A DNA stretch of 64,000 nt. It comes from Paludibacteraceae bacterium. GTDB taxonomy: Bacteria; Bacteroidota; Bacteroidia; Bacteroidales; Paludibacteraceae. Positions 822 to 51,965 of this stretch are shown one piece after another (the first letter of the stretch is position 1; the number at the start of each line of letters is the position of its first letter). Under the pieces are notes generated by a model that worked only from the letters and a program-made list of their open reading frames with translations, was not told where the DNA came from and did not search any database. The stretch covers positions 25,778 to 89,777 of the forward strand of contig JAFYSK010000051.1 of NCBI GenBank assembly GCA_017559385.1, given 5' to 3'. The translations under genes and the position numbers were made by a program.

Positions 822-1741
822 GCCTTTGCCTCCTCTCCTTCAACCTTTGAAACTTCTGAAACTCCTGAAACTCCTGAAACTTCTGAAACCTTTTCAACTG
901 GCGTAGCCTCTGGCTTCGCCTTGCGTGGTGGGAAGTTCACTGCGTGGATCGCACCTGTAGGGCACGCATCCTCGCACTTGCGACACAAGCGGCACTTGTT
1001 GTAGTCGATGTATGCCAAGTTGTTCTCAATGGTGATTGCATCAAACTCGCATACCTTTTGGCACTTGCTGCAACCGATACAAGCGTTGGTACATGCCTTG
1101 CGTGCTACAGCGCCCTTGTCTTTGTTGACGCACATCACGACGATGCGGCGGCTCTTAGGACCTTTCTTGCGCAGCTCGATGATGTTGCGTGGACATGCGC
1201 TAACGCACTTACCACAGCTAGTACACTTCTCATCGTCCACCTCTGGCAAACCCGTCTCTGGGTTCATGTGGATGGCGTCAAACTCGCAGGCAGCTACGCA
1301 GTCGCCACAACCCAGACAACCGAACGGACAAGCTGTCTCACCCACATAGCAGTTGTGCATGATTTGACAACTCTTAGCACCATCGTAGATGCTTGTTCTT
1401 GGTCGTGCTTCGCACGTACCGTTGCAGCGTACCACTGCTACTTTGGGGTCGATCGCTCCGACCGCCATTCCTAGGATCTCACCTACGGTTTTCATCGTAG
1501 GTGCACCGCCTACAGGGCAGAGCAGACCGTCCAATGTCTCGGCTTTGACGCAGCCTTCGGCAAACGCGCGACAGCCAGCATAACCGCAACCACCGCAATT
1601 AGCGCCAGGCAATGCCTCTTGCACCTCGTCGATGCGTGGGTCTTCCTCTACCTTAAACTTCTGAGCCACGATATAGAGCAGCACCGCTGCTATCAATCCT
1701 GTTGCGCCCAGAACGGCTAAAGCAATTAGAATTAAATTCAT
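818..1741 (-). CDS. rnfB: Rnf complex subunit B (Fe-S protein)
   Basis: N-terminal TM helix, a CGGCGYAGC motif and several CxxCxxCxxxCP ferredoxin motifs (CTSCGKCVSACP, CRLCRKCEDACP). It lies directly upstream of rnfC. Confidence 0.92.
   Translation of the reverse strand: MNLILIALAVLGATGLIAAVLLYIVAQKFKVEEDPRIDEVQEALPGANCGGCGYAGCRAFAEGCVKAETLDGLLCPVGGAPTMKTVGEILGMAVGAIDPKVAVVRCNGTCEARPRTSIYDGAKSCQIMHNCYVGETACPFGCLGCGDCVAACEFDAIHMNPETGLPEVDDEKCTSCGKCVSACPRNIIELRKKGPKSRRIVVMCVNKDKGAVARKACTNACIGCSKCQKVCEFDAITIENNLAYIDYNKCRLCRKCEDACPTGAIHAVNFPPRKAKPEATPVEKVSEVSGVSGVSEVSKVEGEEAKA
848..892 (-). repeat. Five tandem 9-nt units (TGAAACTYC variants) inside the rnfB 3' end
   Basis: Read directly: tgaaacttc tgaaactcc tgaaactcc tgaaacttc tgaaacctt. 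The array is in frame and encodes ...VSEVSGVSGVSEVSKV... Confidence 0.9.
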
Positions 1742-1780
1742 TGTGTTTGTATAATTTAGTTTTTATTGATCGTTTCACTC

Positions 1781-1920
1781 TTAGATCACTGCGTTGTTAG
1801 ACCATTTCATTGTTAGATCGTTCGCTTTGCTCACTGTTAGATTTCTTAGTCTAACAGCCGCCTAGCGGCGGTCTAACAGCCGAAGCCGGTCTAACTTCTA
1901 ATAGCCCATAGGGCGGTCTC
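1781..1920. repeat. Word array: about 4 GTTAGA-type words followed by about 4 inverted TCTAAC-type words
   Basis: ttagatc, gttagacc, tgttagatc and ctgttagat are followed by gtctaacag, ggtctaacag, ggtctaac and ggtctc. The array fills the rseC-rnfB spacer. Confidence 0.8.
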
Positions 1921-1921
1921 T

Positions 1922-2452
1922 TTACGCTCGCTTGCGAGCCGTAAAAGAAAATTCCTTTTGCAACTTATCTTTAAACATACCTAGCACGAGGTAGTACACT
2001 GCCATGGCGCAGAGTGCCACTGTACCCAGCACAGCCTCTCTTTTTGCCTCATCGCCTAATAGCCCTGTCGCCTCATCGCCCATAGCCAATAGCCCATTTC
2101 CTACAAACATCACTGCCAGCATCACAAAGAATGGCAGTAGATATGCCAGCACCACAGCTTTCCATCCCATCTTCTGCTGCACCATCACTTCCACAGTATC
2201 GCCAAGCTTGTATTGTTCAACATTGTTCAAGGTTGTTGTTTCCTCAGAAGACAATTTTGAACCATCTTGAACGGCGCTTTGCGCCTTTGAACCACTTTGA
2301 ACTAATTGCACCGTCATCTCCTTCTCGGCGCTCTCTGCACTGGCGCACATCGCCTTGGCTTTGCACGCTGCGCACGCACTAGTTTGCACGATTCGCACAA
2401 GGGCGGTGCCGTCCTCATTCAATGCGATTATTATGCCGTCATGTTTGATCAT
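1922..2452 (-). CDS. rseC: RseC/MucC-family (SoxR-reducing system) membrane protein, usual partner of rnf operons
   Basis: MIKHDGIIIAL..VRIVQTSACAACKAKAMC cysteine motif with two C-terminal TM helices. I chose the ATG at 2450-2452 over the upstream ATG at 2506 because a -7 box lies at 2478-2485. Confidence 0.8.
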   Translation of the reverse strand: MIKHDGIIIALNEDGTALVRIVQTSACAACKAKAMCASAESAEKEMTVQLVQSGSKAQSAVQDGSKLSSEETTTLNNVEQYKLGDTVEVMVQQKMGWKAVVLAYLLPFFVMLAVMFVGNGLLAMGDEATGLLGDEAKREAVLGTVALCAMAVYYLVLGMFKDKLQKEFSFTARKRA

Positions 2453-2477
2453 TTTCCTTTTGCTTTGCAAAAACGCG

Positions 2478-2485
2478 CAAAGGTA
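2478..2485 (-). promoter_or_regulatory. Bacteroidetes -7 box (TACCTTTG on the minus strand) for rseC-rnf
   Basis: Plus-strand caaaggta reads TACCTTTG on the minus strand and matches TAnnTTTG. It is preceded by a T-run and lies 26 nt upstream of the rseC ATG. Confidence 0.55.
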
Positions 2486-2506
2486 CAAAAAAATACGCAC
2501 ATACAC

Positions 2507-2814
2507 AAGCGTTTTGAGCGAAAATTTATTTTCGGGCTAAAAAATGCTTGTGTATGGGCTGCGTAGGGTGGCAGTAGCTTCGGGGGAATTGCTTCAGCAA
2601 GGCGGCGTCCGAAGGTACAATATTGCCATTCTACGTTAGGGTGTAGCCCGCATCTTGTGTAAGCGTTTTGAGCGAAAATTTATTTTCGGGCTAAAAAATG
2701 CTTGTGTATGGGCTGCGTAGGGTGGCAGTAGCTTCGGGGTAATTGCTTCAGCAAGGCGGCGTCCGAAGGTACAATATTGCCACTCTGCGCTAGGGCATTG
2801 CCCGCAAATACGCA
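2507..2814. repeat. Two tandem copies of a 154-bp unit
   Basis: 2507-2628 and 2661-2782 match at 121 of 122 positions by eye. The 32-bp tails of each unit (2629-2660 versus 2783-2814) are related but diverged. Confidence 0.9.
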
Positions 2815-3051
2815 AGGAAATACGCACAAATTCGCCATTTTCTATTCCTTTATCCTTTTGATCCCCCTTTATCTGCCACCTTCCTCCATCGTGACCTCAT
2901 CGTGACCTCATCGGAATCTCGCCGAATGATTAGCGTATCTTCAAGCAGAGATTACCGAATTTTCTGCTCAATGGCAAAATCATCTCGGGTTGGTGAATCG
3001 AACTTTTCCAAAAAAAATCCTTGCCTTTTTGTATATATTAAATATTTTTTG

Positions 3052-3059
3052 TACCTTTG
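3052..3059 (+). promoter_or_regulatory. -7 box TACCTTTG
   Basis: It sits in the context ttttttgtacctttgc, 41 nt upstream of the ATG at 3100. Confidence 0.55.
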
Positions 3060-3099
3060 CGCAAAATTCATGGACTTTCTTTTAAAAAAACAGAACTGT

Positions 3100-3813
3100 A
3101 TGAGACGTAGATTTGTAGTGGCTCTTGTGTTAATGCTGGGAGCAATAGCATCCTTAGCACAGGTCCAACCCACAGATACAAAGTATATGATTTCGCTGCA
3201 TACTGGTTATGCACACAACTTGACTTATGGCTCTTATGCTACCTTTGATCTAGATGCGTATGTGCCTATTCATCAGCACTTTGATATGCAGGCCAATCTT
3301 CGTACAAGTACAGCCAATTCTCATAGTCTTGGCGTACAATTACGTCCTAAGTTTGCTTTGCCTGTGGGCGAGTTGTATATAGAAGATCGATTAATGATGC
3401 GCTTTGTGGCTTGCGATGAGTTTAACGAGTTTTTGCATGCGATATCCCTAGGGTATATGATGGAATATGTGAATGTGCAAGTAGGTGTGTACACTCGTGT
3501 TATTCAGCCTTTGCCTTATATCCCTCGTAGCGAAGATGAATTGATCTGCGAACCATTTGATGTACTATACCGAGTAGAGGCTTTTGTTCGCCCACGCACT
3601 TCGCCATGGAATATCAGTTTGGCTCTCTCTAATGTGGATAATTATCAAGTGGAGCGTATGTGGCAACCTATGTTTTACTTAGGTGGTTGGTATGATATCA
3701 ACGAACATTGGCGAGTACGCATGTCTGGCAAGCTGAAACTAGCGGGCATGTTCCACCTCAATGCTCATTACTACGCATCTGAACTCCGTGTAGGAGCTGA
3801 ATATAGATTTTAG
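3100..3813 (+). CDS. Hypothetical outer-membrane beta-barrel-like protein
   Basis: Signal peptide MRRRFVVALVLMLGAIASLAQ, alternating aromatic and hydrophobic strands, and a C-terminal ...GAEYRF. The track ORF start at 2902 is a GTG inside the spacer, so I rejected it. Confidence 0.6.
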   Translation: MRRRFVVALVLMLGAIASLAQVQPTDTKYMISLHTGYAHNLTYGSYATFDLDAYVPIHQHFDMQANLRTSTANSHSLGVQLRPKFALPVGELYIEDRLMMRFVACDEFNEFLHAISLGYMMEYVNVQVGVYTRVIQPLPYIPRSEDELICEPFDVLYRVEAFVRPRTSPWNISLALSNVDNYQVERMWQPMFYLGGWYDINEHWRVRMSGKLKLAGMFHLNAHYYASELRVGAEYRF

Positions 3814-3841
3814 TTGAAGGTTTGTTTTGAAGCACGAAATT

Positions 3842-4738
3842 ATGAAAAAGAATATTCAAATTTATCTTGGCTCCTTATTATCTGTTTTTAGTATTATCCT
3901 GACCGCTTGTGGTCCTGATGCTCGTTTGGATATGGCTGGCATGTTTGCAGGTTCTTCGCCCAAGATTGACGACCGTTTTACGGAGTCGCAAGTGTATAAT
4001 AATCAGCATGGTTTCTGTACACTTCAAGCTCCTGCAGAGGATTACCATGTGTATGTGTGTACCGATACACATATAACTAAAACGCAGAAGCGTTGGATTA
4101 ATTTTATTGAAACCTATCGCCAAGATATGCTTTGTCCAGTAGCGGTACACCTAGGGGATATTATTGATGCGCAGAATCATTTTGATGAGATGTATTCTGC
4201 TTATCAATCTGTGCCGATGAATCCTGCTAAATCAGATACTCTGATGGCTATCGCAGGTAATCATGATATCTATTTCAAGCAATGGCCGCAGTTTATCGAA
4301 TTATTCAAAACGTGTACCTATTATTTCATCGTTCGTACGCCATCGGGCGCGCAAGACTTGTTTATCTGTTATGATTCAGCCGATGGTACTGTAGGTTCTA
4401 AGCAATTGCAATGGCTTACTCAGACGCTTCAATGGGCTGATACACAGGGCTTTCGTCATATAGTAGCATGTACCCATACGCATTTTTTTAAGCGTGATTA
4501 TTCTCAAGGACATACCTCCAATTATACCACTGAGGAAACGTTTGCTTTGTTAAATCTTTTCGCCAAACATGGAGTGGAAATGCTATGGTCAGGACATGAC
4601 CATGCCCGCGAGGTTACTAAAGTGAAGGGGATGACTTGTATTGTTGTTGATTCGATGAAGGATGGTGACAAGAATCCATTTTATATGCTTGTGACCATGG
4701 GCAAGTCTATCTCTTATGAGTTTATACCCGTTGACTAA
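3842..4738 (+). CDS. Calcineurin-like metallophosphoesterase lipoprotein
   Basis: Lipobox LTAC. Phosphoesterase motifs: CTDTH, GDIID, GNHD, THTH and GHDH. I preferred the ATG at 3842 to the TTG at 3827. Confidence 0.8.
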   Translation: MKKNIQIYLGSLLSVFSIILTACGPDARLDMAGMFAGSSPKIDDRFTESQVYNNQHGFCTLQAPAEDYHVYVCTDTHITKTQKRWINFIETYRQDMLCPVAVHLGDIIDAQNHFDEMYSAYQSVPMNPAKSDTLMAIAGNHDIYFKQWPQFIELFKTCTYYFIVRTPSGAQDLFICYDSADGTVGSKQLQWLTQTLQWADTQGFRHIVACTHTHFFKRDYSQGHTSNYTTEETFALLNLFAKHGVEMLWSGHDHAREVTKVKGMTCIVVDSMKDGDKNPFYMLVTMGKSISYEFIPVD

Positions 4739-4796
4739 ATAATCGGTTTCCCCGAGCGTTTGGGGGCCTGAAGAGCCCCTAATATATAAGCACAAT

Positions 4797-4834
4797 AAAA
4801 TCCTTGAATGTTTGTATTTTCAAGGATTTTTTTT
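4797..4834. terminator. Rho-independent hairpin shared by convergent genes
   Basis: aaaatccttgaa, a 10-nt loop, then ttcaaggatttt followed by a T-run. Confidence 0.7.
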
Positions 4835-4838
4835 GTAG

Positions 4839-4949
4839 TTATTTCCGTGGGACTTTTCTGTGCTTTTTTTTCGTGCTGAATAGTAAAAATGGCAGAAAAA
4901 ATAGTGCTATCATTCCCAGTGAGATTAAGCTGATTATCCAGTGGTTCAT
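4839..4949 (-). CDS. Small single-TM protein (start uncertain)
   Basis: MNHWIISLISLGMIALFFLPFLLFSTKKKHRKVPRK. It is the third member of the YtxH / holin-like cluster. There is no homology evidence. Confidence 0.3.
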   Translation of the reverse strand: MNHWIISLISLGMIALFFLPFLLFSTKKKHRKVPRK

Positions 4950-4995
4950 AGTTGTTAAGTTTGAGTCGTGAAATAGGTTGATTTTTGTCTTCGGA

Positions 4996-5469
4996 TCAGT
5001 GGCCTTTGATAAGTTGCAAAATGCCATCTATCAGTATCCAATCTTGTCGGATATTATGGATGTCTTGTTGTAAAGCTTGCTGTTGTTCAATGGATTGATA
5101 CTCAGCGGCTTGTTTTTGGTGATCTAGCGGAGTTGTGTCGTCTAAAATCACATCGCTTAGTTGTGTTTCTAGGGGCTGGATAAACCACTTTTTTCGGCAC
5201 CAAAATACCGTCAGAGCGACCAGGAGAATGCAGCCAGAAATCACCAAATATGATGCCCACATAGGCAGCCAATATTCTAGCCAAGCGGCCAGTGCAATGG
5301 CGGCAAAAATCAGTCCGATTATCATCAATGTGATGATGATTACAGCGGCGATAATCATGCCTGTAATTTGGCTCAGTTGCTTCACTGTTTTTACCTGTAG
5401 CAACTTGTATTGCAGTTTAATATATTCTTGTGTATCAGTTAGCAACTGATTATAAATCCTTGTATCCAT
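4996..5469 (-). CDS. Holin-X / phage-holin-family-like membrane protein
   Basis: Two long TM helices are flanked by coiled, Gln-rich segments. It is adjacent to a YtxH gene, as is common in Bacteroidetes. The family assignment is from memory. Confidence 0.55.
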   Translation of the reverse strand: MDTRIYNQLLTDTQEYIKLQYKLLQVKTVKQLSQITGMIIAAVIIITLMIIGLIFAAIALAAWLEYWLPMWASYLVISGCILLVALTVFWCRKKWFIQPLETQLSDVILDDTTPLDHQKQAAEYQSIEQQQALQQDIHNIRQDWILIDGILQLIKGH

Positions 5470-5649
5470 AAATCATGATCTATTGTATAATTGATTGTCA
5501 TCATTGTTGTTTGTAATTGTCTTTATTGTTGACATTAATTGTCGCTATTGTTGAAACTTTTGTTTCCTTGTCGCGCAAGGATGTTGATTCGAGCGCAAGT
5601 TGTTGATTTAAGTTGTCGAAATTGTCGTTAATAATTCCTTTTTGTACTC

Positions 5650-5681
5650 AAAATAGCGCAGAGGGATGTTGCCCCCTGCGC
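5650..5681 (-). terminator. Hairpin terminator after the YtxH gene
   Basis: On the minus strand, gcgcaggggg-caacat-ccctctgcgc (one G-U pair) is followed by TATTTT. Confidence 0.6.
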
Positions 5682-5687
5682 ATGGTT

Positions 5688-5951
5688 TTACTTCTTCGCA
5701 GCTTCCTCTACAGCGGCTTCGATGTCAGCTTTACAATGGCAGTTGCACATGCCATTCTTGATGCGTCTCATCACTTTCTCCACCACGTTGGAGATCTCGT
5801 CTAAGTTCATTTGTGAGTACTTCTCGCGTGCGATTGCCGCGATCTCTGCGCGCAGTTCACTGCCGCGCTTTGGAGCGAATAGCAAGGCTACTGTAGCTCC
5901 TACTACGGCTCCGCCTAAGAGAGCCAATAGCATCTTTGATCCAGTTGTCAT
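5688..5951 (-). CDS. YtxH domain-containing protein
   Basis: N-terminal glycine-zipper TM segment (LLALLGGAVVGATVALLFAPKRG) followed by a helical tail. Confidence 0.8.
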   Translation of the reverse strand: MTTGSKMLLALLGGAVVGATVALLFAPKRGSELRAEIAAIAREKYSQMNLDEISNVVEKVMRRIKNGMCNCHCKADIEAAVEEAAKK

Positions 5952-5977
5952 AGTTAATTAGGTTTTAGTGTTAATAA

Positions 5978-6012
5978 ATACAGGAAAGTGACCTTATTGC
6001 CCTTTCCTGTAT
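5978..6012 (-). terminator. Hairpin downstream of the giant gene
   Basis: atacaggaaag, a 13-nt loop, then ctttcctgtat. The U-tract on the minus strand is weak. Confidence 0.45.
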
Positions 6013-6056
6013 ACTTAGACACAAAATGCGTGCCAAACTCTTTGGAGGTTGAGTAA

Positions 6057-6126
6057 CCTCTAACCTATAACCTATATCCTATAACCTATATCCTATAACC
6101 TATATCCTATATCCTATAACCTATAA
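6057..6126. repeat. Ten tandem heptamers, CCTATA[A/T] (the first unit is cctctaa)
   Basis: Counted unit by unit. It begins 8 nt beyond the stop of the 2129-aa gene. Confidence 0.9.
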
Positions 6127-6133
6127 CCTCCCA

Positions 6134-9100
6134 TTACCACACCACAGCTTGTGTGAACTGCTTGCTGTTGTCGCGCATGATAGCCTCTACTACGTACACG
6201 CCAGCAGGCACACTAACGGCAGTGCTGTTGTATTGTAGATCAAGTGATTTCTGCGCGATTACTCGACCTGAGAGGTCATATACATTCACAGCTTTCATGA
6301 TGTCATCTGATGCGACTACCATCTTGCCTTGTTCTGGCGAATATGCCCAGATGTTAATCTCTGCACCCATCTCTGGCTTGCTTGGATTATTAGTAGATGT
6401 GGTCACATCGTTATTTGAAGCTCTGTCAGGACCCTCAATATAATATCTATTCTCGTGATTTTGTGGCATTTCCATCTTTAATATCAGACCATCCAATATA
6501 CGATAGCGTTTACCCGTTACAGCATCGCAGAAATAGCATTTCTTATTCCAATTTCGTGACAGATAGAAGGAGAACACCACCTCCTCCGTGCGATAATCAT
6601 CGTGTACCAACATGGATACAGGCACCGTATCAATATGCTCTCTCACGTCCACCATCATAGGTACTTGCTTAGACACCGTATACATATTGATTGGCGAAGT
6701 GGCGGATGCAAAATTCACTCCTTGCTCCACACCCGAAGAAATAAACAAGGCGTCCTCATCACCATTATATATATCACTCGCGTACGCGTACGATGCCAAC
6801 ATACAACGGGCATGACCATTATCGCAATTCGCATAGATCGTCATCAATTGTGCTTCTTCATCTTCTCCATCGAGCGCAATTCTTCTTGACTTTTGTCTTG
6901 CAGGTGCACTGGCGTTCATATGATCTTTTGACAAGCTTACAGTGATAGATTTCTTAGCTTCAACACCCTCCTTCAACTCCAACATCACCGAACGCATCGG
7001 AGCTAACATGCCAGACGCAGGATCACTGGTAATCGTATACCAGTTCTCAGCTTTCCAAGCGCTTTCCTCCATCGTATAATACTTCGCCGCTAGAATATGA
7101 CTATTCGCTGCTAAGAATTCAGCCATATCAATTTCTCCCATCGTTGGATTACCAAACATAAACTGTTTGCTTGCGATATCATTCGTTAGCGTGATGGTCA
7201 TATTTCCCGATTGATCCGGATCAAAGGCCAATCTATTCGAGTGACTAACGGATACGCGCTGGCTAGATTCGCTTCCATCCTTATTAAAATAACTATAATA
7301 GGTGTCTGGCTTAGGCAGACGAACGATAATCTCGTCACCTGCCCCGCGAGTTGGACCAAAACCTAGCACCTGATATCCACTTCCTACAGGCAAGGTTTGA
7401 CCCAATGAGTTGGTTTGTGCGAACAAAGCCGTCTCCGTCAATGCTGGGTACGACTGGTTACCATTCTCGTGGTAGATAGTCACACGTTTGTTGTACAGCG
7501 ACTGCCAGAATACATATGGCGCTTTGCTAGTGCGTGTGCCTTTAAAACCGCTTACGGCAAACGGATAATTGCTATGGTCGGTTACATCGTCGTATTCCAC
7601 ACTTACTTGACCTTCATGTGGCACATACATATCACCTGTGTACATACCCTTCAACGGTGGTGCCATTGAGTTCCAGTTGGCCGCACCTATCTGCATATCA
7701 ACAAATGCCTTCTTATATTCTAGCAAATGTTGATTGTAGACCATCGAACCAACCTTAAAGTAGATGTTATTACATGCATGAGGACTATAGTTCACGTCCA
7801 TCGGGTGCAGATCCTCCTCCTGGATAATAGGCGCTGCACCATTTGGAAGAATAACATTCGTCTCTGCCATAGGAGCAAATCCCTTGTCCGTTAGACTACC
7901 ATCAGCTCTCACTCCTTTCCAGTTTCCATCATCGCCCCATATATTCGATACTGCACCAGTCCATTGAACCGTCTTGGGTACCACACTCAAATAGAAGTAT
8001 ACATATCCTACACGACAATCTGTGGTATCGCCCTGAATATAGGCATTACCATCTTGATCGTAAAACGCCATACGCATCAGGTAATCTTCTCCTACTTCTA
8101 GCGTAGCAGGCGCCTCGACTACCCGGATTGCTGCATCAGTTATACTCACATACTCCAATACACGAGGAATAGGAGTATGATAACTAAATTTCAAAGTGTC
8201 CCTACCTGGCGCAAAATCCAAGTTTGTACTCAGCAACGTGCTATCTAGTAACTCTTTGATAGGTATAGCCACTTCCGTCGTTCCTTCTAGTATGCGCACA
8301 GATGGTATCTCTAGGCGTTGCTTGTGAGTTTGGTTTTCCTTATCCAAAGGAGATAAGTTCACCGCATATTCGGAGTAACTAGACTGTACTTTCACCCACA
8401 GCGGTTCGTCGCAATCAAACAGCGGATAGGTATTTCCGTTGAACTCAATACTTGCATCCTGTGCCACAGGATAGGCCCAATAACGAACAATCTCCTCGGA
8501 ACCCATATAGAATTGCACAGATTTCTTATATAATGTTAATTTGCCCTCAGCGCACAAGCGCTTAATGAGTGCTAAATCTTCGGCATCGAAGAAACTCGTT
8601 GTTACCAATTTATCTACATCCTCCTCTTGGTAATTAGGATTGGGCGTATCTAGCGATGGCATCTGACGCATATGGCTGATAGCTTCACGCAGTGTGTGAC
8701 GGTCACAACCATATTTTTGTTCAAAGGCTTGGTTTGAAGCGTTTCGCTCTTCTTCGGTCATGGTACGCATATGGCAATATACGTCATCACTTTCTTCTCC
8801 TACCAACCAGTCCGCGTGTATCTCAGCACCCATCGTCTCCAAACCACCACCAATACCCGAAGCAAAGGTGTTTTCTACGCGTACGTTGAGGAAGTAGATA
8901 TTATTTGCACAAAGTTCATCGCGACATTCTACACGCTCTACACTGCCCTCTGTGTCTTTTAACTCAATATAGGTATCCGTTGTTGGATAAATTGGAGTGG
9001 TTGACGAACAGTTGGCCTTGGCTAATTCGGCTGGATCGTGAGCAATCACCAATTGATAATCCTTATTCTTTTCTAGGTATATATCCGAGTCATCTCCCAC

Positions 9101-44157: not shown

Positions 44158-46485
44158 ATGAAAAGAATTTTACTATCTTTGATTTCCCTTTTGTGTATAG
44201 CTTCTACGTATGCTATCTCATTAAATGGTAGAGAGTACACCATTGATACTCTCTCTATGTATCCTGTAGGTCCTGGTACTACTTTCTACGAGCTTCGCAT
44301 GCTTCGTGTAGATGCAGTTAGTCGTTTGGACTGCTGGCTGCTGGCAGTGGATACCCGTGATCCATATGTTTCTGTAGAGCAAGTTTTGGGTACTGGTAAA
44401 ATCTGTGGTACAGAGACTCCATCCAAGATGGCAACTCGTAGTACTACCGATAGCAAAATCTTCTTTGCTGGTGCTAATGGCGACTTCTTTACTACTCAAG
44501 ATGACCAATCTACCGCTGCTTATCACGAAGTAGGTATGCCTGTTAGTACCACAATCGTGAATAGCGAGTATGCGCATACTCCGATTGCTAATCGTACCAA
44601 ACGCCGATTAGGTGCTATTGATGCAGACGGTAAAGGTATTACTGCTGTTACTCATACAATTGCTATGCATCTTGTGTTGGCGGATACTACTCTTGAAATC
44701 AAACATGCTAACTATCTCCGCAAAGACAACGAGTTGGTTCTTTATAATATCCACAATGGTACAACTACAGCTACCAATGCTTATGGTACTGAGGTGCAAA
44801 TTCAATTGCTAGATGGCCAGAAATGGCAAACTTCAGGTACTATGAAGGCTAAAGTAACCAAGGTGGAGGATCAAGTAGGATCCATGCCTCTTGATAAGGA
44901 TCATGCTGTTCTGTCAGGTCATGGTACCATGGCTACAGAGTTGAACAAACTCAAAGTGGGTGATGAGATTACACTTGATTTTGAAATCAAATTCGAGGAC
45001 AAACTCGTTAATATCGCTCAAGCAATAGGTAGTGATAATTATACTCAAATCCTTGTAAATGGTAATGTGGCACAAGACGGTTTCTGGAATGAATTGCACC
45101 CACGTACTGGTTTTGGTGTATCACAAACACGCGATACAGTGTTTATGTTAGTTGTGGATGGTCGTAGCGCTATCAGTGCCGGTTGTACAACCAAAGTGTT
45201 GGCTGAGATTCTTCAACATTATGGTGCATACAATGCCGTAAACTGGGACGGTGGCGGCAGTTCTTGCCTCTATATACGCCCTATGGGTCAAATGAATAAT
45301 GGTTCTGATGGTGGTGAACGTGCGTGTGGTAATGGTATGTTTGCAGTAGCTAATGTGCCAGAAACAGATAACACCATTGCTAAGATCGCACCTTATCAAC
45401 CTATTTATCCTCTTCCACGTTACGGTGTGGCTGCTCCTCAGTTCTTGGGTTATAACAAGTATGGTGTGCTTGTAGAGACAAACGTGTCTGGTGTTACACT
45501 ATCATGCGCTCCTGAAGTAGGTGAGATTTTGCCTGATGGTCGCTTCTTAGCTTCTGGTGAGAATGGTGGAAAATTGGTGGCAACCTATGGTGATGTTACA
45601 ACCGAATTGGAGGTACGTTTGATGGCTTCTGCTCCTGTTGCTATTCGTCTAGATTCTGTTATTTGCGATATCTTACATCCATACAAGGTAGAGGTACAAG
45701 GTGCTATTGGTAATAGTTATGTAGAAGTGCTCGCTGATGCTTTAGAGTGGGAATCTTTAGATCCTACAATTGCAACTGTAAATGAAAAAGGTGAAGTTAC
45801 TGGTGTTAAGAATGGTAGAACAATCGTAGTAGGTACGCTAGGTGAATTTGCAGATAGCATTATTGTTGATGTGGAGATTCCAGAAGCCAATAAGATTGTG
45901 TGGGATGATTTCCGTAATGCCGCTTCTTGGGAGATTAAAGGATCACCTACATCTTTCAAGCCATCTCTGTCTGTTCCAGAAGATCCTAATGCTCCTGTTA
46001 ACTTGCTCTTTACTTACGGATCAGGACGTAACCCATTCATCCAATTATCTAAAGACTCGCTTCTCTATTCTAAACCAGAGAAAATTCTTGTTCCAATAAC
46101 TACTAATGCAGTGTTCGAGAAAGTAATCGTGATGATTCGCGCGAATAATTCTAACACCACAGAGCAAATTACTTTCTTGAATCCAAAAGCAGGTGAGGAG
46201 AATATTTTGGAGATTGATGTAAAAGAGCGCTTTGGCGCAGATGTTGCCATTTATCCTTTACACTTCCTCTCTTTGAAGATGGTTCCTACTTCTGAGACTA
46301 CCAAAGGTGAATGTTATGTGACTCTTCCTGGTATTATTGAGGTGTTTACAGAGGAAACAACCGATGTGGAGAATATCACCACCTCTAGCTCAAGTACCGC
46401 TGCTAAATTTATCAAAGACGGTTCGTTGTATATCCAATCAATGGATAAGGTTTATGATGTGTTAGGAGTGCAAGTTAGCAAATAA
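44158..46485 (+). CDS. Phosphodiester glycosidase (DUF2233 / NAGPA-like) protein with a Big_2 domain and the conserved C-terminal tail
   Basis: NAVNWDGGGSS hallmark motif, Big_2-like LDPTIATVNEKGEVTGVKNGRTIVVG, and an SPI signal. Confidence 0.82.
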   Translation: MKRILLSLISLLCIASTYAISLNGREYTIDTLSMYPVGPGTTFYELRMLRVDAVSRLDCWLLAVDTRDPYVSVEQVLGTGKICGTETPSKMATRSTTDSKIFFAGANGDFFTTQDDQSTAAYHEVGMPVSTTIVNSEYAHTPIANRTKRRLGAIDADGKGITAVTHTIAMHLVLADTTLEIKHANYLRKDNELVLYNIHNGTTTATNAYGTEVQIQLLDGQKWQTSGTMKAKVTKVEDQVGSMPLDKDHAVLSGHGTMATELNKLKVGDEITLDFEIKFEDKLVNIAQAIGSDNYTQILVNGNVAQDGFWNELHPRTGFGVSQTRDTVFMLVVDGRSAISAGCTTKVLAEILQHYGAYNAVNWDGGGSSCLYIRPMGQMNNGSDGGERACGNGMFAVANVPETDNTIAKIAPYQPIYPLPRYGVAAPQFLGYNKYGVLVETNVSGVTLSCAPEVGEILPDGRFLASGENGGKLVATYGDVTTELEVRLMASAPVAIRLDSVICDILHPYKVEVQGAIGNSYVEVLADALEWESLDPTIATVNEKGEVTGVKNGRTIVVGTLGEFADSIIVDVEIPEANKIVWDDFRNAASWEIKGSPTSFKPSLSVPEDPNAPVNLLFTYGSGRNPFIQLSKDSLLYSKPEKILVPITTNAVFEKVIVMIRANNSNTTEQITFLNPKAGEENILEIDVKERFGADVAIYPLHFLSLKMVPTSETTKGECYVTLPGIIEVFTEETTDVENITTSSSSTAAKFIKDGSLYIQSMDKVYDVLGVQVSK

Positions 46486-46494: not shown

Positions 46495-48789
46495 ATGAAA
46501 AGAATACTATTCTCTTTATTTTCTCTCTTATGCATAGCGTCATCCTATGCTATATCCCTAAATGGTATAGAATATACTATTGATACCTTATCTATGTTTC
46601 CTGCAGGTCCGGGTTCCACCTATTATGAGCTACGACTTCTTCGTGCTGACAATGGTTTGGGACGCTTAGATGCATTCCTCTTAGCAGTAGATACCCGTGA
46701 TCCTTATGTGCAAGTGCAACAGGTCTTGGGTAAAGGTAAGGTTACTGGTTGTGAGGTACCATCTAGTATGGCAAAACGTAGCACTACCGATAAGGAGATT
46801 TATTTTGGTGGAGTCAATGGCGACTTCTTTGCTTACGAAGCTCCTGTAGGTACTACAATTATCAATGGTCAGTATGCCCTCACACCTTTTGGTTCTGGTG
46901 GAGGTCGTCGTCATGGCGGTATTGATGCTGAAGGTAGAGGCGTAACGGCTTATACTCATACCTATTCTATGAAGGTTACAACGCCTGCGAATGCGACTCT
47001 TGATATACATCACGTAAATGACTATCGCGATGAAAATCAATTGGTTCTCTTTAATCATCATTTGGGCACCACTACTGGAACTAATGCCTATGGAACAGAA
47101 GTGAAAATCCAATTGCTAGAAGGAGAGACCTGGAAAACAACCGGTACTATGAAGGCTAAAGTGCTTGCCAAAGAAGAAAATGTAGGTTCTATGCCTCTAG
47201 CGGCTGGTTATGCAGTTCTTTCTGGTCATGGCTCGATGCAACAAGCATTGAATCAGCTCAATGTGGGTGATGAACTTACACTTTCATTCGAACTACGTCT
47301 GGATGATGAACTAGTTAATGTGGCGCAGTTCATAGGTGGTGATCATTATGAAGCTATGATTCTGGATGATGGCAAGGTAGCTCAATCTGGTTTCTGGAAC
47401 GAATTGCACCCTCGTACCGGTTTCGGTGTTTCTCAAACCCGTGATACTATCTTTATGATGGTGGTTGATGGTCGTGGTGTAAGTAAAGGTTGTACCACTA
47501 AAGTAATGGCTGAGATTCTCAAGCATCATGGTGCTTGGAATGCTGTCAACTGGGATGGCGGTGGTAGTTCCTGTATGTATATTCGCCCATTTGATCAAAT
47601 GAATAATGGTTCAGATGGTAAAGAACGTGCCGTTACCAATGCAATGTTTGCAGTGGCTCACGTACCAGAAGTAGATACTAATGTGGTTGCTATTGCGCCT
47701 TATATGCCAAACTATTATTTGCCTCGTTATGGTGTGGCAGCACCTCAATTCTTGGGCTATAACAAGTATGGCGTGCTTGTTGAGACCAACGTGACTGGTG
47801 TTAAACTCTCTTGCGCTCCAGAAGTAGGTGAGATTCTCGAGGATGGCCGTTTCTTGGCTACTGGAGAAAAGGGAGGAAAGTTGGTGGCTACTTGGGGTGA
47901 TGTAACAACGGAATTAGATGTTCGTATATCTTCTACAGCTCCTATCGCTATACGAATAGATACAGTTTTGTGTGGTCCTCAACCATACAAAGTGGAGGTT
48001 GAAGGTACTGTAGGTAATAATACGGTAGAAATCTTGTCAAGTGCATTGACTTGGAGTTCAGCCGATCCTACCATTGCTACAGTGGACGAGGAGGGTAATG
48101 TAGAAGGTAAGAAAAATGGTATGGTAGTGATTACTGGTAAATTGGGTACATTCACCGATCAAATCGTGGTTAAAGTAGAATTTCCAGAATCAGATCCATT
48201 GATTTGGGATGATTTCCGTCAAGCAAGCTCATGGGAATTGAAAGGATCACCTACATCTTTCAAGCCATCTCTGTCTGTTCCTGAAGATCCAAATGCCCCT
48301 GTTAACTTGATGTTTACATATGGTTCTGGACGTAATCCTTTTGTCCAATTGTCTAAGGATTCTCTTCTCTATTCTACACCAGACAAAATCCGTGTTCCTT
48401 TGACTACAAATGCGGTGTTTGAGAAGGTGATTGTGATGATTCGTGCGAATAATTCTACTACCACAGATCAGATAACATTCCTTAATCCTAAAGCAGGTGA
48501 GGAGAATGTTCTTGAGATTGATGTGAAAGAACGTTTTGGAGATGATGCAGCCATTTATCCATTGCGTTTCCTAGCTTTGAAGATGATACCTACTTCTGAA
48601 ACACCCAAAGGTGAATGCTATGTGACGCTTCCTGGAATTATTGAGGTGTTCTCTGAGCAAACTACTGATCTAGAAGATGTGACTTCTAATCAATCATCTA
48701 CGAATGTGAAATATATCCAAAATGGCAATTTGTATATCCAAACGGTGGATAAAATATACAATATATTAGGTGCTGAAGTAAGCAAATAA
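46495..48789 (+). CDS. Phosphodiester glycosidase (DUF2233 / NAGPA-like), tandem paralogue
   Basis: It is collinear with the preceding protein over its full length and has the same motifs (NAVNWDGGGSS, Big_2, C-terminal tail). Confidence 0.82.
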   Translation: MKRILFSLFSLLCIASSYAISLNGIEYTIDTLSMFPAGPGSTYYELRLLRADNGLGRLDAFLLAVDTRDPYVQVQQVLGKGKVTGCEVPSSMAKRSTTDKEIYFGGVNGDFFAYEAPVGTTIINGQYALTPFGSGGGRRHGGIDAEGRGVTAYTHTYSMKVTTPANATLDIHHVNDYRDENQLVLFNHHLGTTTGTNAYGTEVKIQLLEGETWKTTGTMKAKVLAKEENVGSMPLAAGYAVLSGHGSMQQALNQLNVGDELTLSFELRLDDELVNVAQFIGGDHYEAMILDDGKVAQSGFWNELHPRTGFGVSQTRDTIFMMVVDGRGVSKGCTTKVMAEILKHHGAWNAVNWDGGGSSCMYIRPFDQMNNGSDGKERAVTNAMFAVAHVPEVDTNVVAIAPYMPNYYLPRYGVAAPQFLGYNKYGVLVETNVTGVKLSCAPEVGEILEDGRFLATGEKGGKLVATWGDVTTELDVRISSTAPIAIRIDTVLCGPQPYKVEVEGTVGNNTVEILSSALTWSSADPTIATVDEEGNVEGKKNGMVVITGKLGTFTDQIVVKVEFPESDPLIWDDFRQASSWELKGSPTSFKPSLSVPEDPNAPVNLMFTYGSGRNPFVQLSKDSLLYSTPDKIRVPLTTNAVFEKVIVMIRANNSTTTDQITFLNPKAGEENVLEIDVKERFGDDAAIYPLRFLALKMIPTSETPKGECYVTLPGIIEVFSEQTTDLEDVTSNQSSTNVKYIQNGNLYIQTVDKIYNILGAEVSK

Positions 48790-48812: not shown

Positions 48813-51809
48813 ATGAAAAAAACATTTCTATTTCTTCTTGGAATCTCCGCTGCCTTGATGGCAAGTGCTGAGATCCGTGTACTTAGCAATGTGAAATTAG
48901 GCGAAGGATTTTTCCCTCGCTTTGCAGATGCTGAGACTGTTACTTATCTTACGAGTGAAAATGCTGATTATGTCACTGTTGCTGACGAGGCAGACTTGCG
49001 CGTAGATAATGAGAATTTGGACCTTAACCTATATCGCAATGGCGAAAAGGTTGTGCTCAAACCTCATGGTGATGTTAACTATATTTGGGCGTCTCTTTCT
49101 CCTGACCAAACCATGATTCTTTTCAACACCAAGTATGGTACTGCTGTATGTGACCTTAATGGTAATGAAATGATTAATCTAGGTAATGTGAATGCTCCAG
49201 TATGGTATGGCAATGACTATATCGTCGGTATGAATGATTTGCACGATGGATATCATTTTACATCATCTAATATCGTTATCGCTTCTGTGGATGGTACCGA
49301 GCGTCAAGAATTGACAGACGCTGTGGAAATGGGTTATTATCCAGATGTAGATGCTAAGTCTGGTCGAATCGTATATCACACAGAAAAAGGTCAAATCCGT
49401 TTGATGCAATTGAATTTGACTGAAGAGCCTGTTCGTACCAACTTGCCTCGCTTGCTACAAAAGCCTGACGGAACCTTGCTCAACCAAATGAAACGCCAAG
49501 CTAAACGTGCGTCTTCTACCAATCCTGCCGATTACAAGATTTATATCAACCCTGGTCATGGTGGTTATGACTCCGATGACCGTTTGATGTATCTATATCC
49601 AATCTTCGTAAATCAAGTAGTGCAAGAACCTTATACCCGTGAACAAAGTTTCTGGGAGAGTACTTCCAACCTTGATAAAGGTCTTCGCTTGGATACTATG
49701 CTTCGTGCATTGGGCTTCCAAACCAAACTCTCTCGTATTACTAATACTACTGCAGATGACCGTAGTCTTTCAGGAATTTCTGCGGAGGCAAGTCAATGGA
49801 ATGCAGATTTCATGCTTTCTATCCACTCCAACGCAGGTAATCCATCCAACTATGTTCTTCAACTCCACTCAGGTATTACTCCTGGCGACCCTTATGGTTT
49901 GAATGGTTATCCAGAGAAAGTGCCAGAATGGGTATGCGACGAGGCACGCAAAATTACCACATTGATGGGTAATAACCAATATTCTAACCAAGTTAGCTGC
50001 TGGTCACGCGAGCCAAATATCGCAGGTGATAAGACTTTTGCGCGTACCATCATGGGATGGTCTAATGGTTATGGTGTTATGCGTAACTTGAAAGTGCCTG
50101 GTACAATCTCAGAGGGTATGATGCACGACTACTTGCCTGAGACATATCGCTTGGTAAATATTGATTACAAACGCCAAGAGTCTTTCCAATTTGCTAAAAC
50201 TTTCTACACCTACTTCTGTGGAAAAGAGCTTCCATATGGTGCTATTGGTGGCAAACTTCACGACGTATACCAAAAACAATTGTTCCCAGATTATAAGGCT
50301 CGCAAAGGTTCGCGCGACGAGTATCGCCCAATCTTGAAAGGTTTGGTGGAGTTGTGGCAAAATGATCAGTTGCTAAAGACATACGTTACTGATACTCTTT
50401 ATAATGGTGTGTACTATTTCTGGGATCTCAAACCAGGTACCTACGTTGTAAAGGCAAAGCCAGAAGGTTATTATCCACAAGAGCAAACAATTGAGGTGAA
50501 GAATAATGAAATTTCTTATGGTATCTTTGCTCTTTCTTTGCAACGCCAAACACCTCCTGTAGTTTTGGATTACAGTCCAAAGGTAGAACTTACAGATAGC
50601 GTTTTAGTTTCCACTCAACTTACTATCTCTTTCAACTGGGATATGAACGAGGAGGAAACAGCTAAGGCTCTCCAAATCTCACCAGCCGTAGAGGGTACTA
50701 TCACATTTGAAGATGATGCCCACACTATGCGCTTCAAACCTGCATCACGTTTTGAGCCAGGTGTTGAATATACTGTTACCTTGGGCACTGGCGCTTGCCA
50801 CCCTGATACAATGTTTAACAATCATTTGCAAGAGCCATTTACCTTCAAGTTCCGTACTCAAAACCGTGGTTCAGTGCGTGTAATGCAAACTTATCCTACA
50901 AATGGCTCAGAGAATATTCCTGTAGATGCAGCGTTTATTGCTATCTTTGATGGTAAGTTGGCTAACTCATCTAACAAATACTTCAAGGTGTATGACTCTG
51001 CAGGCAATGATATTAGCCCTGTTTCTCGTAACGTGAAACTGAATGGTGTAGCTCCTGCTCCTTATGGATCAGCTAAGTTCGAGTTGAAAGCCGGTACATT
51101 GAAACCAAACTCTGAGTACAAGATGGTTATTGGTGCTGAGGTTGCTGATGTTAATGGTGTGCTTGTGAACGATCCTGTTACTGTTACCTTTAAAACAGGT
51201 GACGAGGTGACATCTACTCTTCCTATATTGAATAACTTGGATACGCTCTATTTTGAGGGAGACAAAGAAACTTCAACCGGCGTTGCATCTGTTTCTACAC
51301 TTAGAAATACTGCGTCTAAATATGAGGGTTTGGCTTCTAATAAGTTGACCTATACATTCTCAGAAGCAAATGGCGAGGCTATTTATGTTGTAGATGATGT
51401 TACAGCTATCAAGGGTAATAGTCTTTCTACATTCGGTATGCATGTATTTGGTGATTATACATTCAATACCCTATATGCAAAATGGGCTGTTGAAGGTGAT
51501 ATTCAATACACTAAGATTTGCGATCTTGACTATGCTGGATGGTTGTATCAAGAAGCTGATATGTCTGCCCTTCCTGCAGGTGTTGACTATCAGTTTATGG
51601 GCTTCAAGTTAGTTCGTGGTACATCTTTCCTTTCAGAGAAGGGTGAGATTAGTATCGATGCATTGCGTGTTCAATTTGAGTCTACACCAAATGCTGTAGA
51701 AAATGTTGAAACTACAAACCAAACCAATAGCAAGAAAATCAATAATGGTTACTTGTATATTATGAAGAATGATGTTGAGTACAATATCCAAGGTGCTGTT
51801 GTGAAATAA
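48813..51809 (+). CDS. Multidomain secreted N-acetylmuramoyl-L-alanine amidase (Amidase_3) with a propeller-like N-domain, SbsA-Ig-like repeats and the conserved C-terminal tail
   Basis: IYINPGHGGYDSDDR...MLSIHSNAG... are Amidase_3 motifs. The later segments ...TISFNWDM....TVTLG are Ig-like. Confidence 0.8.
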   Translation: MKKTFLFLLGISAALMASAEIRVLSNVKLGEGFFPRFADAETVTYLTSENADYVTVADEADLRVDNENLDLNLYRNGEKVVLKPHGDVNYIWASLSPDQTMILFNTKYGTAVCDLNGNEMINLGNVNAPVWYGNDYIVGMNDLHDGYHFTSSNIVIASVDGTERQELTDAVEMGYYPDVDAKSGRIVYHTEKGQIRLMQLNLTEEPVRTNLPRLLQKPDGTLLNQMKRQAKRASSTNPADYKIYINPGHGGYDSDDRLMYLYPIFVNQVVQEPYTREQSFWESTSNLDKGLRLDTMLRALGFQTKLSRITNTTADDRSLSGISAEASQWNADFMLSIHSNAGNPSNYVLQLHSGITPGDPYGLNGYPEKVPEWVCDEARKITTLMGNNQYSNQVSCWSREPNIAGDKTFARTIMGWSNGYGVMRNLKVPGTISEGMMHDYLPETYRLVNIDYKRQESFQFAKTFYTYFCGKELPYGAIGGKLHDVYQKQLFPDYKARKGSRDEYRPILKGLVELWQNDQLLKTYVTDTLYNGVYYFWDLKPGTYVVKAKPEGYYPQEQTIEVKNNEISYGIFALSLQRQTPPVVLDYSPKVELTDSVLVSTQLTISFNWDMNEEETAKALQISPAVEGTITFEDDAHTMRFKPASRFEPGVEYTVTLGTGACHPDTMFNNHLQEPFTFKFRTQNRGSVRVMQTYPTNGSENIPVDAAFIAIFDGKLANSSNKYFKVYDSAGNDISPVSRNVKLNGVAPAPYGSAKFELKAGTLKPNSEYKMVIGAEVADVNGVLVNDPVTVTFKTGDEVTSTLPILNNLDTLYFEGDKETSTGVASVSTLRNTASKYEGLASNKLTYTFSEANGEAIYVVDDVTAIKGNSLSTFGMHVFGDYTFNTLYAKWAVEGDIQYTKICDLDYAGWLYQEADMSALPAGVDYQFMGFKLVRGTSFLSEKGEISIDALRVQFESTPNAVENVETTNQTNSKKINNGYLYIMKNDVEYNIQGAVVK

Positions 51810-51836
51810 GCAACGCATATCTCTCAATAAATAAAG

Positions 51837-51868
51837 ACAGGGGACACAATCTTGTGTTCCCTGTTTTT
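51837..51868 (+). terminator. Rho-independent terminator
   Basis: acaggggacac-aatctt-gtgttccctgt (one G-U pair) followed by tttt. Confidence 0.7.
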
Positions 51869-51965
51869 ATACCCTCTACCACTTTCATTTTTGACTTTCG
51901 ACCTTGACTTTCAACTCTCAGCTATAAACTTTCAACTAAAATTTGCATATTTGCAATTTTTTTAG

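Follow-up and report, generated by a model that had tools for sequence, protein, structure and literature searches.

Tandem word arrays in the operon spacers of a Paludibacteraceae bacterium as probable arms and remnants of small palindromic cassettes resembling rRNA intervening sequences

The spacers in a 64,000-nt stretch of the genome of an uncultured Paludibacteraceae bacterium from the ruminant gut (GenBank assembly GCA_017559385.1, contig JAFYSK010000051.1, positions 25,778 to 89,777; hereafter the window) are rich in tandem arrays of short words. We consider it probable that these arrays are the arms, and the eroded solo arms, of lineage-wide small selfish palindromic cassettes that resemble the intervening sequences (IVSs) of rRNA genes and mostly lack a gene, with slippage acting in addition. 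In a complete unit, a small PF05635-family open reading frame (ORF) would lie between a left arm of tandem 7–24-nt words and a right arm in which these words recur as reverse complements; the majority of copies would have lost the ORF and be bare palindromes of 50–175 nt. The units would occupy junctions, typically from a stop codon to the next start codon and co-directional with the operon, and unstructured in-frame versions would lie in permissive protein loops. Once the unit is inserted, one arm may be expanded, contracted or homogenised by slippage until it is a pure short-period array, and mosaics would arise through recombination between elements. Within the polycistronic transcript, base pairing of the two arms would give a long stem, which would be processed by analogy with the rRNA IVSs cut by RNase III. 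The words may represent multiple binding sites of a trans-acting protein, possibly the PF05635 protein itself. Different cassette families would carry different words, and each spacer would therefore seem to have its own; that each spacer largely has its own word was noticed in an earlier, sequence-only prediction for this DNA (the original prediction) and holds.

The arrays are concentrated in spacers. They were defined by Tandem Repeats Finder (TRF; score of at least 30, period 4–50), and the gene map of the window, built from long ORFs and Pfam hits, left 4,757 nt of intergenic DNA. TRF arrays cover 15.3% of the intergenic (728/4757 nt) and 1.0% of the coding sequence. Spacer array bases amount to 655 nt as compared to 44 ± 32 nt (0.9% cover) in 100 dinucleotide-preserving shuffles of the window spacers, none of which reaches the observed value; the arrays first reported from reading the sequence are thus real. 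Most of those listed then are called by TRF at the positions given (Table 1); three (5470–5650, 18223–18249 and 51886–51940) fall below the TRF threshold, though they are visible by eye. The statement that nearly every spacer longer than 60 nt holds an array was too strong, but the majority do (12 of 19). An assembly artefact, which had been allowed for, is excluded because a sequencing read is longer than the arrays and metagenome-assembled genomes of independent studies have identical spacers.

Searching the GT2 protein of the window (24788–26212, minus strand) against one genome per species gave 80 syntenic loci (L001–L080), with GT2 identity from 100% to 75%. The record titles are mostly of uncultured Paludibacteraceae or Bacteroidales metagenome-assembled genomes (ruminant, horse and human gut), a few having other taxon names. 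Arrays occur in nearly all of these loci, at 0–6 per 10 kb, and a single locus has none; overall, they make up 9% of non-coding versus 0.6% of coding bases. In a control of 50 kb of Escherichia coli DNA, 0% of the non-coding bases lie in such arrays. The periods of the 583 arrays from the syntenic loci and the window peak at 7 nt (92 arrays) and 11 nt (126 arrays), followed by 12, 9 and 10 nt; periods of 14 and 21–22 nt are multiples, and multiples of 3 are not favoured. A protein footprint or the helical repeat might cause the 7- and 11-nt periods. The sense strand of arrays in co-directional junctions shows no G/C skew (A 37%, T 29%, G 18%, C 17%), and a transcription-linked strand bias was rejected on this ground.

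The same junction is found empty in some species and filled in others. The GT2→DUF4922 junction is empty (TAA-T-TTG, 4 nt) in L008, L015, L017, L020 and L023 and elsewhere contains one of seven unrelated fillings of 50–175 nt, the flanking protein being 95–99% identical; no intermediates were seen between the 100–175-nt elements and the exact empty sites. At the nagB→GT2 junction, at least eight mutually unalignable fillings (62–190 nt) are present in 33 species with GT2 93–100% identical; the conserved part is only ~35 A/T-rich nt beside the GT2 start, and in more distant species the junction measures 3–60 nt. The filling of the window looks, from its sequence, like a recombinant of the L001 and L002 types. 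The badF-like→murQ junction has an orthologous element in 14 species (2–3 copies of ACGGGTTCATG and 2–5 copies of ACCGAGAGATC), and other species have TTCAWAA 7-mer arrays or a 21-nt spacer without an array. Unit number also drifts at orthologous loci: GGTTAAA is present once, twice or three times at nagB→GT2 (L002, L006, L030), ACCGAGAGA two to five times and TCGAWAG 12 or 4 times, and SpoIID differs by −8 or +11 aa. The comparison of syntenic spacers that had been proposed as a check thus revealed both whole-unit copy-number differences and whole-element gain, loss and replacement between species, and we therefore distinguish two processes, unit-number change by slippage and the turnover of whole elements.

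Identical or similar modules are found at non-homologous sites. A 64-nt module at 16181 in the binding protein recurs at 17729 in SpoIID (88% identity) and, inverted, in the GT2/DUF4922 spacer. A 66-nt module is present at 23337, 43906 and 43973 (71–79% identity) and also downstream of DUF4922 in L001, L002 and L012. The palindrome at 1775–1921 matches the GT2→DUF4922 fillings of L002, L004, L010 and L041 and the DUF4922-loop insert of L036 at 92–97% over 30–37 nt. Overall, modules of 60–126 nt that are 87–98% identical lie at non-homologous sites and in unrelated genes. The earlier claim that distant loci have words in common is borne out: the 23-nt string at 1870–1892 recurs exactly at 41165–41187 (0 matches in 100 shuffles), and 9 array pairs have an 8-mer in common where 2.6 ± 1.7 are expected, with 2 of 500 shuffles giving as many. 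For single 7-mers, the excess over chance is only weak (17 pairs, with 10.0 ± 3.2 expected; 16 of 500 shuffles give as many). These tests used array consensus units and 500 unit shuffles, because raw repeats hold fewer distinct k-mers than their shuffles and the null then exceeds the observed value. We regard the longer strings (64 nt at 88%, 66 nt at 71–79%) as decisive. With modules copied between non-homologous sites and elements present or absent at exact empty sites, local slippage alone is insufficient, as had been suspected.

The modules reach beyond the syntenic set. A metagenome scan with the core of the GTTCAA unit, TGAACGCGAAGCNYTGAAC, matched more than 120 contigs, 30 of which have 2–10 hits (38–56% G+C, all but three 38–47%). 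Single-hit high-GC soil contigs are probably chance matches (~40 expected, by estimate), and only the 30 multi-hit contigs were used. GTTCAA and GCGAAGC units occur in contigs with no other nucleotide similarity to the syntenic loci. In L098 (Ga0256829_1003035, 1–11976, GC 39%), a chromosomal contig of another organism that encodes Mfd, a Wza-like exporter and a PF05635 protein, about half of the length consists of GTTCAANNNN and TTGAAC-GCGAAGC arrays, with up to 50 copies and higher-order units of 83–167 nt. Its intergenic regions of 500–1000 nt carry GTTCAANNNN 20–50 times followed by ATTGAACGCGAAGC up to 24 times; GCTGTTG ×14 and CCAAATCT ×9.6 are also present. L098 is an extreme case of what is seen in the window, and a local accident cannot explain it.

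Arrays run into coding sequences, as had been stated, with in-frame copies in SpoIID, DUF4922, RseC, a periplasmic binding protein and RnfB. Most of the SpoIID orthologues listed have 396 aa and a different 20-aa loop, the rest being 96–98% identical in those aligned; variants of the insert differ by whole units, with 8 aa fewer (one word-plus-hairpin unit) or 11 aa more (a duplication). The hot spot in DUF4922 is located between RWNI(I/V)SW and FNT(I/V)(I/V)FFR. In 27 species with near-identical flanks, it measures 12 nt (no insert) or 48–150 nt, always a multiple of 3, and at least eight unrelated types of insert are found, all of them palindromes of words and mini-hairpins. The last three or four residues and the stop codon of DUF4922 vary by species. 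The Pfam domain of RseC is spread over 160 residues for 122 profile positions, and the RseC palindrome is identical to the DUF4922 insert of L006 at 67 of 77 positions. The GTTCAA element is in frame in RseC, SpoIID and the binding protein of the window and in DUF4922 of L006 and L012. The DUF4922 gene (23749–24681; L001–L041) also falls into two allele clades with numerous differences (e.g. LELRGRAF..NHHFTIS versus ASHGRAF..SPHFTVS), with the adjoining GT2 95–99% identical; insert types cut across both clades, which implies recombination between these 'species'.

Most fillings examined are imperfect palindromes with a common grammar, in which a left arm of n word copies is answered by a right arm of reverse-complement words. 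Left-arm words include GTTCAA, GTTAGA, GGTTAAAG, GTTTTAAG, GTTCAGA and GTTTCA and are often spaced by GC-rich mini-hairpins with 3–4-nt loops (GCGAAGC, GCCGAAGGC, CCCACAGGG, GCGACCAAGTCGC). The mini-hairpins vary between neighbouring units (GCCGCCTAGCGGC, GCCGAAGCCGG, CCCATAGGG); the conserved part is the adjacent word, and this only within a family. This grammar, the GC mini-hairpins and the link to PF05635 had escaped the original prediction. The spacer palindromes at 1775–1921, 24676–24787 and 26240–26345 fold beyond their shuffles (z = −4.6, −3.8 and −3.2). The one-stranded arrays at 28360, 6054, 41000 and 23240 do not fold at all, and the inserts within coding sequences have no significant structure (z = −0.6 and +0.6), which is consistent with selection against long stems in coding RNA.

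PF05635/PF22296 is S23p, the '23S rRNA intervening sequence protein', with a four-helix-bundle or bAvd-like fold. In L051, the nagB→GT2 junction, only 3–11 nt long in the sister species L048, L050 and L052, holds a 125-aa ORF whose closest homologues all carry PF05635 and mostly also PF22296. The ORF is flanked by AAAGACAAAAG and TCTTTTGTC arms (left, 2 × AGACCGC..CAAAGACAAAAG; right, TCTTTTG ×5), and L044 has a gene-less palindrome of the L051 arm words at the same junction. The closest relatives of the L051 ORF are found elsewhere, at a site upstream of an EamA gene, and have the same arm words; P0194, which is ~60% identical, lies in an RND-pump operon and has L051-type arms. Arms of this type accompany the ORF at three different loci, and the arms therefore travel with the gene. 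Three further PF05635 subfamilies each have their own word in inverted arms; their sites are fatty-acid oxidation operons and the junction of an RND adaptor gene with that of its pump. The cassette genes at L204–L218 carry PF05635. In L215, the left arm is TCGAWAG ×12 starting from the upstream stop codon and the right arm CTTTCGA ×4 (33 nt at 94% complementarity); its sister L216 has four left-arm copies versus 12. Flanking inverted repeats are likewise found in L218 (30 nt, 80%), L217 (29 nt, 79%), L051 (13–20 nt, 90–100%), L204 (12 nt, 100%) and L213 (15 nt, 80%). Inverted word arms and co-directional gene neighbours are present at all 7 independent PF05635 sites examined and at L098 and L109, where the PF05635 genes (E = 5e-31 for the L098 ORF) are embedded in GTTCAA arrays. 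L207 has an internally deleted copy beside a complete cassette, made up of the left arm, the ATG and two codons, the last ORF codons and the right arm; it shows how gene-less palindromes originate. In the window, 41184–41201 matches 17 of 18 nt of the subfamily-A left-arm unit (L213, L204), and 16219–16241 and 17767–17789 also match arms of PF05635 cassettes.

Three further observations concern the PF05635 genes. The most conserved motif of the family, (N)IAEGFER, is encoded by ..GCCGAAGGCTTTGAACG.., in which a GCC-GAA-GGC mini-hairpin followed by a TTGAAC word equals the unit of the GTTCAA arrays. In L106 (8790–8830), the array unit continues within a decayed PF05635 gene (GFEREALN). The overlap may be coincidental, may mark a hot spot of recombination or may show where the unit came from. 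In the 592-nt contig P0178, the 138-aa product of one gene call joins a PF05635 protein and a 4Fe-4S ferredoxin-like tail similar to RnfB ~229–265 (tblastn against window 947–1054, E = 0.011), which suggests either a cassette next to or inside the rnfB-like gene of a relative or a chimeric contig.

Several observations weigh against descent from cassettes. No PF05635 remnant was detected in the large spacers of the window (120 queries, E ≤ 1) or in the whole 64-kb window, and the 1.44 Mb of related loci contain only one PF05635 gene, so that gene-less forms vastly outnumber any autonomous partner. As PF05635 genes are this scarce, derivation from a cassette is shown for few families only (AAAGAC/ACCGC, GTTCAA and probably TCGAAAG), and for most other word families of the window we extrapolate. 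The empty and filled pairs show neither a target-site duplication nor a conserved terminal sequence. PF05635 is, to our knowledge, no known recombinase; the cassettes have no recognisable transposase, and the only ORF that they carry encodes the 120-aa four-helix-bundle protein. The link of GTTCAA to PF05635 draws on contigs chosen by a pattern derived from the window, and PF05635 genes might prefer pre-existing palindromes rather than be their source. Finally, there are signs of growth in place: the final 10 nt of nagB, stop codon included, are repeated once more in tandem in L036, the last nagB codons recur in inverted form in L004 and L007, and the right-arm words at GT2→DUF4922 resemble the first DUF4922 codons. 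Microhomology-guided insertion could equally account for these.

Such signs are what the main rival explanation predicts, a local mutational process in which tandem duplication and inverted, snap-back or template-switch copying of the flanks are neutral in spacers and loops and involve no mobile element. The whole-unit copy-number differences between species, the higher-order periods of 9, 18 and 36 nt and the arrays that begin in a stop codon (L054, L069, L076) agree with it as well. Nevertheless, we regard it as unlikely. It does not account for near-identical modules at non-homologous sites and in unrelated genes, for complete elements facing exact 4-nt empty sites, for identical arms and ORF at three loci or for GTTCAA and GCGAAGC units in otherwise dissimilar contigs. 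Tandem duplication seeded at the stop codon is real but minor, and was rejected as the main origin: it affects ~2% of ORF ends versus 1.1% within genes, an enrichment of only ~1.7-fold.

More doubtful still is that the arrays are selected cis elements, either binding-site arrays or RNA structures (for mRNA processing or stability, termination, initiation without a Shine–Dalgarno sequence, or the nucleoid), whose sequences are free to drift. Their positions right after stop codons, in leaders and between cistrons, the significant hairpins, the conservation of ~35 nt beside the GT2 start while the rest varies, and the 10–11-nt periods close to a helical turn would all fit. However, close relatives have empty junctions or unrelated fillings, and the modules are tolerated in frame within proteins. 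No Rfam family, rRNA included, matches the window at gathering thresholds, so known RNA families are ruled out. Intrinsic terminators and sigma-70 promoters were rejected: a scan for terminator-like structures found 10, which does not clearly exceed the 6.3 ± 2.6 of shuffled sequence, and the palindromes have no T-tails.

Known repeat systems resemble the cassettes in part, and those considered nearest each have a defining feature that is missing here. The 23S IVS of Coxiella is described as selfish; it carries an S23p ORF and inverted repeats, RNase III excises it, and two or three tandem heptamers beside the ORF differ in number between strains (PMC4990558). The rRNA IVSs of Leptospira, Coxiella, Xanthomonas and Brucella have a PF05635 ORF, often decaying or lost, between inverted repeats and beside variable short tandem (heptameric) repeats, and are regarded as selfish; relatives of the window likewise have a PF05635 ORF and flanking inverted repeats able to form a stem. 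Known IVSs, however, occupy helix 25 or 45 of 23S rRNA genes and number one or a few per genome, whereas all sites here lie between or inside protein-coding genes (the window has no rRNA by Rfam), at ~3 arrays per 10 kb, mostly gene-less and with many tandem words per arm. The Rickettsia palindromic elements (RPEs) are ~100–150-nt palindromes in spacers and in frame in unrelated genes, in the same reading frame across proteins, and the GTTCAA palindrome in RseC and in DUF4922 of L006 behaves similarly; RPEs differ in lineage and sequence, are not made of tandem short words and have no link to an ORF. Mycobacterial interspersed repetitive units (MIRUs) and other bacterial mini- and microsatellites with a variable number of tandem repeats (VNTRs) share the tandem units in operon spacers, sometimes over stop or start codons, and the unit-number polymorphism at orthologous loci. 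MIRU units are 40–100 nt in few families; those here are 7–24 nt, with inverted arms and whole-element gain, loss and replacement, and, unlike a VNTR array, are not explained by their own locus only, as modules are common to non-homologous loci and species. Miniature inverted-repeat transposable elements (MITEs) and the ends of class II transposons (Tn7, Ac/Ds, En/Spm) have several direct copies of a short motif in one arm, inverted ones in the other, and gene-less derivatives arising by internal deletion; inverted repeats and origin from a gene-carrying element are found here too (L044 versus L051; L207), but target-site duplication, conserved terminal nucleotides and an autonomous transposase-encoding partner are not. 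The Neisseria intergenic mosaic elements (NIMEs) and Correia elements and pneumococcal BOX are modular mosaic intergenic repeats with variable internal unit number, but their module sequences are fixed genome-wide and here the word varies by family and locus.

Repetitive extragenic palindromes (REPs) and bacterial interspersed mosaic elements (BIMEs) of Enterobacteria and Pseudomonas are many extragenic palindromic units after stop codons in operons, in mosaic or inverted arrangement. Elements of this type, in which word-plus-hairpin units are moved by a REP-associated tyrosine transposase (RAYT; IS200/IS605-type Y1) encoded elsewhere in the genome, seem to us very improbable as an explanation. 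The short conserved word beside a GC-rich imperfect palindrome, the inverted pairs and mosaics and the location within operons would agree. REPs, however, are confined to extragenic DNA and have one hairpin consensus per genome, a conserved imperfect palindrome with a conserved 5' tetranucleotide; here, even the units of a single element differ in their hairpins, units lie inside coding sequences, and the gene found between the arms is PF05635. No Y1 transposase is present among the 20 window proteins scanned with Pfam. Clustered regularly interspaced short palindromic repeats (CRISPR) and diversity-generating retroelements were rejected by anatomy (7–24-nt periods without unique spacers; no reverse transcriptase or template repeat), as was a tRNA-derived origin, for which Rfam gave no RNA-family match and no dedicated tRNA scan (ARAGORN) was made.

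In the searchable literature we found no prior description of such elements in Paludibacteraceae or Bacteroidales, nor of PF05635 cassettes of this kind, and the element type is apparently undescribed for the lineage. If the cassette interpretation is true, about a tenth of the intergenic DNA, as called by TRF, in an abundant gut family was written by one tiny cassette class, and the share would rise once TRF-negative palindromes are counted; some protein loops would have the same author. PF05635, a very large family of unknown function, would gain a genomic context and a testable role, and the rRNA IVSs would be tied to a much broader element type. We tentatively extend this to the possibility that PF05635 proteins are the trans-acting partners of cassettes that parasitise operons and form a widespread class. 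A given subfamily would recognise the word of its own arms and promote the copying, maintenance or RNA excision of its cassette and of the far more numerous gene-less derivatives; the classical IVSs would be the rRNA-resident members, and in some Bacteroidota (this Paludibacteraceae lineage and the L098 organism) a large share of the intergenic DNA and numerous protein loops would have been written by the class. As the junctions are hypervariable between species with 95–99% identical flanking proteins, they can serve as fine-scale strain markers in metagenomes. The arrays also lead gene calling astray (over-extended starts, swapped C-termini, spurious low-identity loops) and provide a natural experiment on tolerance of in-frame insertion and on Bacteroidota operon mRNAs faced with long intercistronic stems.

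Table 1. Word arrays, palindromes and in-frame inserts of the window, with TRF calls (coordinates in nt)
Feature	Coordinates	Strand	Details
Composite palindrome	1775–1921		rnfB/rseC spacer; left arm 4 × TTAGAYC; right arm 3 × GGTCTAAC words spaced by GC mini-hairpins GCCGCCTAGCGGC, GCCGAAGCCGG; DNA fold −25.4 kcal/mol, z = −4.56, 0/200 shuffles match; TRF 1781–1819
GTTCAA/TTGAAC palindrome	24676–24787		occupies GT2→DUF4922 junction (24682–24787); gene sense: hairpin, GTTCAA words with GCGC mini-hairpins, 4 × TTGAAC-NNNN into start codon; fold z = −3.81; TRF 24676–24726
nagB→GT2 junction filling	26213–26341		gene sense: GTTTAGN ×4, central 15-bp hairpin, NNTACAC 7-mer array, ~35 conserved A/T-rich nt, GT2 start; fold z = −3.15 (26240–26345); TRF 26248–26274, 26315–26341
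One-stranded CTCCTAAAA ×8.4 array	28360–28441		gene sense TTTTAGGAG; TRF periods 9, 18, 36
badF-like→murQ junction filling	29546–29620	+	ACGGGTTCATG ×2.6, then ACCGAGAGAWC ×3.9; TRF
CCTATAW 7-mer ×10.9	6054–6129		directly past stop codon of 2129-aa ORF; TRF
GCACAATAAAT 11-mer array	40994–41081	+	begins within last codons of upstream gene; TRF
Solo arm, word + mini-hairpin units	41140–41205		GGTCTAACAAC.., GGTCCAACAG-CCGAAGG-C, GGTCTTTCAGCGAAGCGGTCTT
Two tandem 66-nt modules	43906–44038		GTTCTTAGCCRCAAGGGCACGATARCGCTTCGCTC + TCCTTCGG words; family D10; third copy 23337–23402; TRF 43933–43976
Four-array large spacer	23240–23630		21-mer ×3.6, TCTCTCGGTCG ×2.8, GGTTCGTCCTT ×4.3, AATCTAAAC ×2; TRF 23240–23314, 23373–23403, 23472–23518
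CTTAGGAAAAGA ×2.9	19673–19707		upstream of yeiH-like gene; 8-mer common with 23240–23314; TRF
GACTTTCGAC/ACTTTCAAC words, then AATTTGC and TAAATTG arrays	51886–52021		3' of terminator-like hairpin
CATCGTGACCT ×2.5	2887–2913		TRF
CACGGAT ×3	18223–18249		sequence reading; below TRF threshold
Degenerate ATTGT/TTGTTG words	5470–5650		sequence reading; below TRF threshold
SpoIID in-frame insert (aa 115–157, 43 aa)	17715–17840	-	GTTCAA ×4, then CTGAAC words with GCGAAGC, GCCCGAAGGGC, GCGAGCGAAAGCGAGC mini-hairpins
Periplasmic binding protein in-frame insert (aa 199–232)	16175–16275	-	SpoIID 64-nt module (88% identical) + CTCATCGCC words
DUF4922 in-frame insert hot spot	23940–23990	-	CTCATCGCC/GGCGATGAG words
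RseC in-frame inserts, two	2040–2292	-	GGCGATGAG words (2040–2095); GTTCAA/TTGAAC palindrome, 80 nt (~2208–2292)
RnfB C-terminal-tail in-frame 9-nt array	838–909	-	GGAGTTTCA; peptide VSEVSGVSGVSEVS; TRF 848–889 (9 nt ×4.7)

Some of the window arrays resemble each other or the arms of distant cassettes. TCTCTCGG of the four-array spacer is the reverse complement of the CCGAGAGA words at 29578. By eye, GACTTTCGAC is similar to the CTTTCGA ×4 right arm of the L215 cassette, and the reverse complement of the words at 5470–5650 to ACAATAA of 41007–41083. The unstructured array at 28360–28441 is probably in the 5' leader of nagB, with a TAATTTTG box upstream of it (at ~28478) that reads as promoter-like.

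Other features of the region were noted. The GT2→DUF4922 spacer of L047, L060, L061 and L064 has a conserved ~45-nt motif, GGTTTTTGGAAGGTTACCAGRCTCTGAACTATCGGGAAATAG, flanked by a long stem, which suggests a structured RNA or another kind of small element; in L060, it has no Rfam match at E ≤ 0.01. DUF4922 and SpoIID are adjacent (69 nt apart) in L202 (9059–11191) and L203, as compared to ~5.5 kb apart in the window (18670–23748). The interval contains the yeiH-like gene, two ORFs without Pfam hits, a TaqI-like N6-adenine methyltransferase (21233–23116) and a 632-nt array-rich spacer, and looks like an inserted restriction–modification island. Upstream of the rseC–rnf operon and of the ORF at 2902–3813 lies a 154-nt tandem duplication (2507–2806; ×1.9, 95% identical), whose GC-rich unit has internal hairpins and no Rfam match at E ≤ 0.01.

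The murQ-like ORF is listed from 29565, but its orthologues align only from residue ~27–30, and its first ~29 codons consist of the ACGGGTTCATG/ACCGAGAGA arrays; the true start is probably ATGGCT at ~29640. Arrays therefore cause over-extended gene calls, and the starts of rseC (GTG at 2506) and of the ORF at 2902 are probably over-extended too. The ORFs at 44158–46485 and 46495–48789 are adjacent tandem paralogues of ~770 aa (DNA 70–77% identical over the full length); together with a third related ORF (48813–51809) and the 2129-aa ORF (6134–12523), they probably encode surface or repeat proteins.

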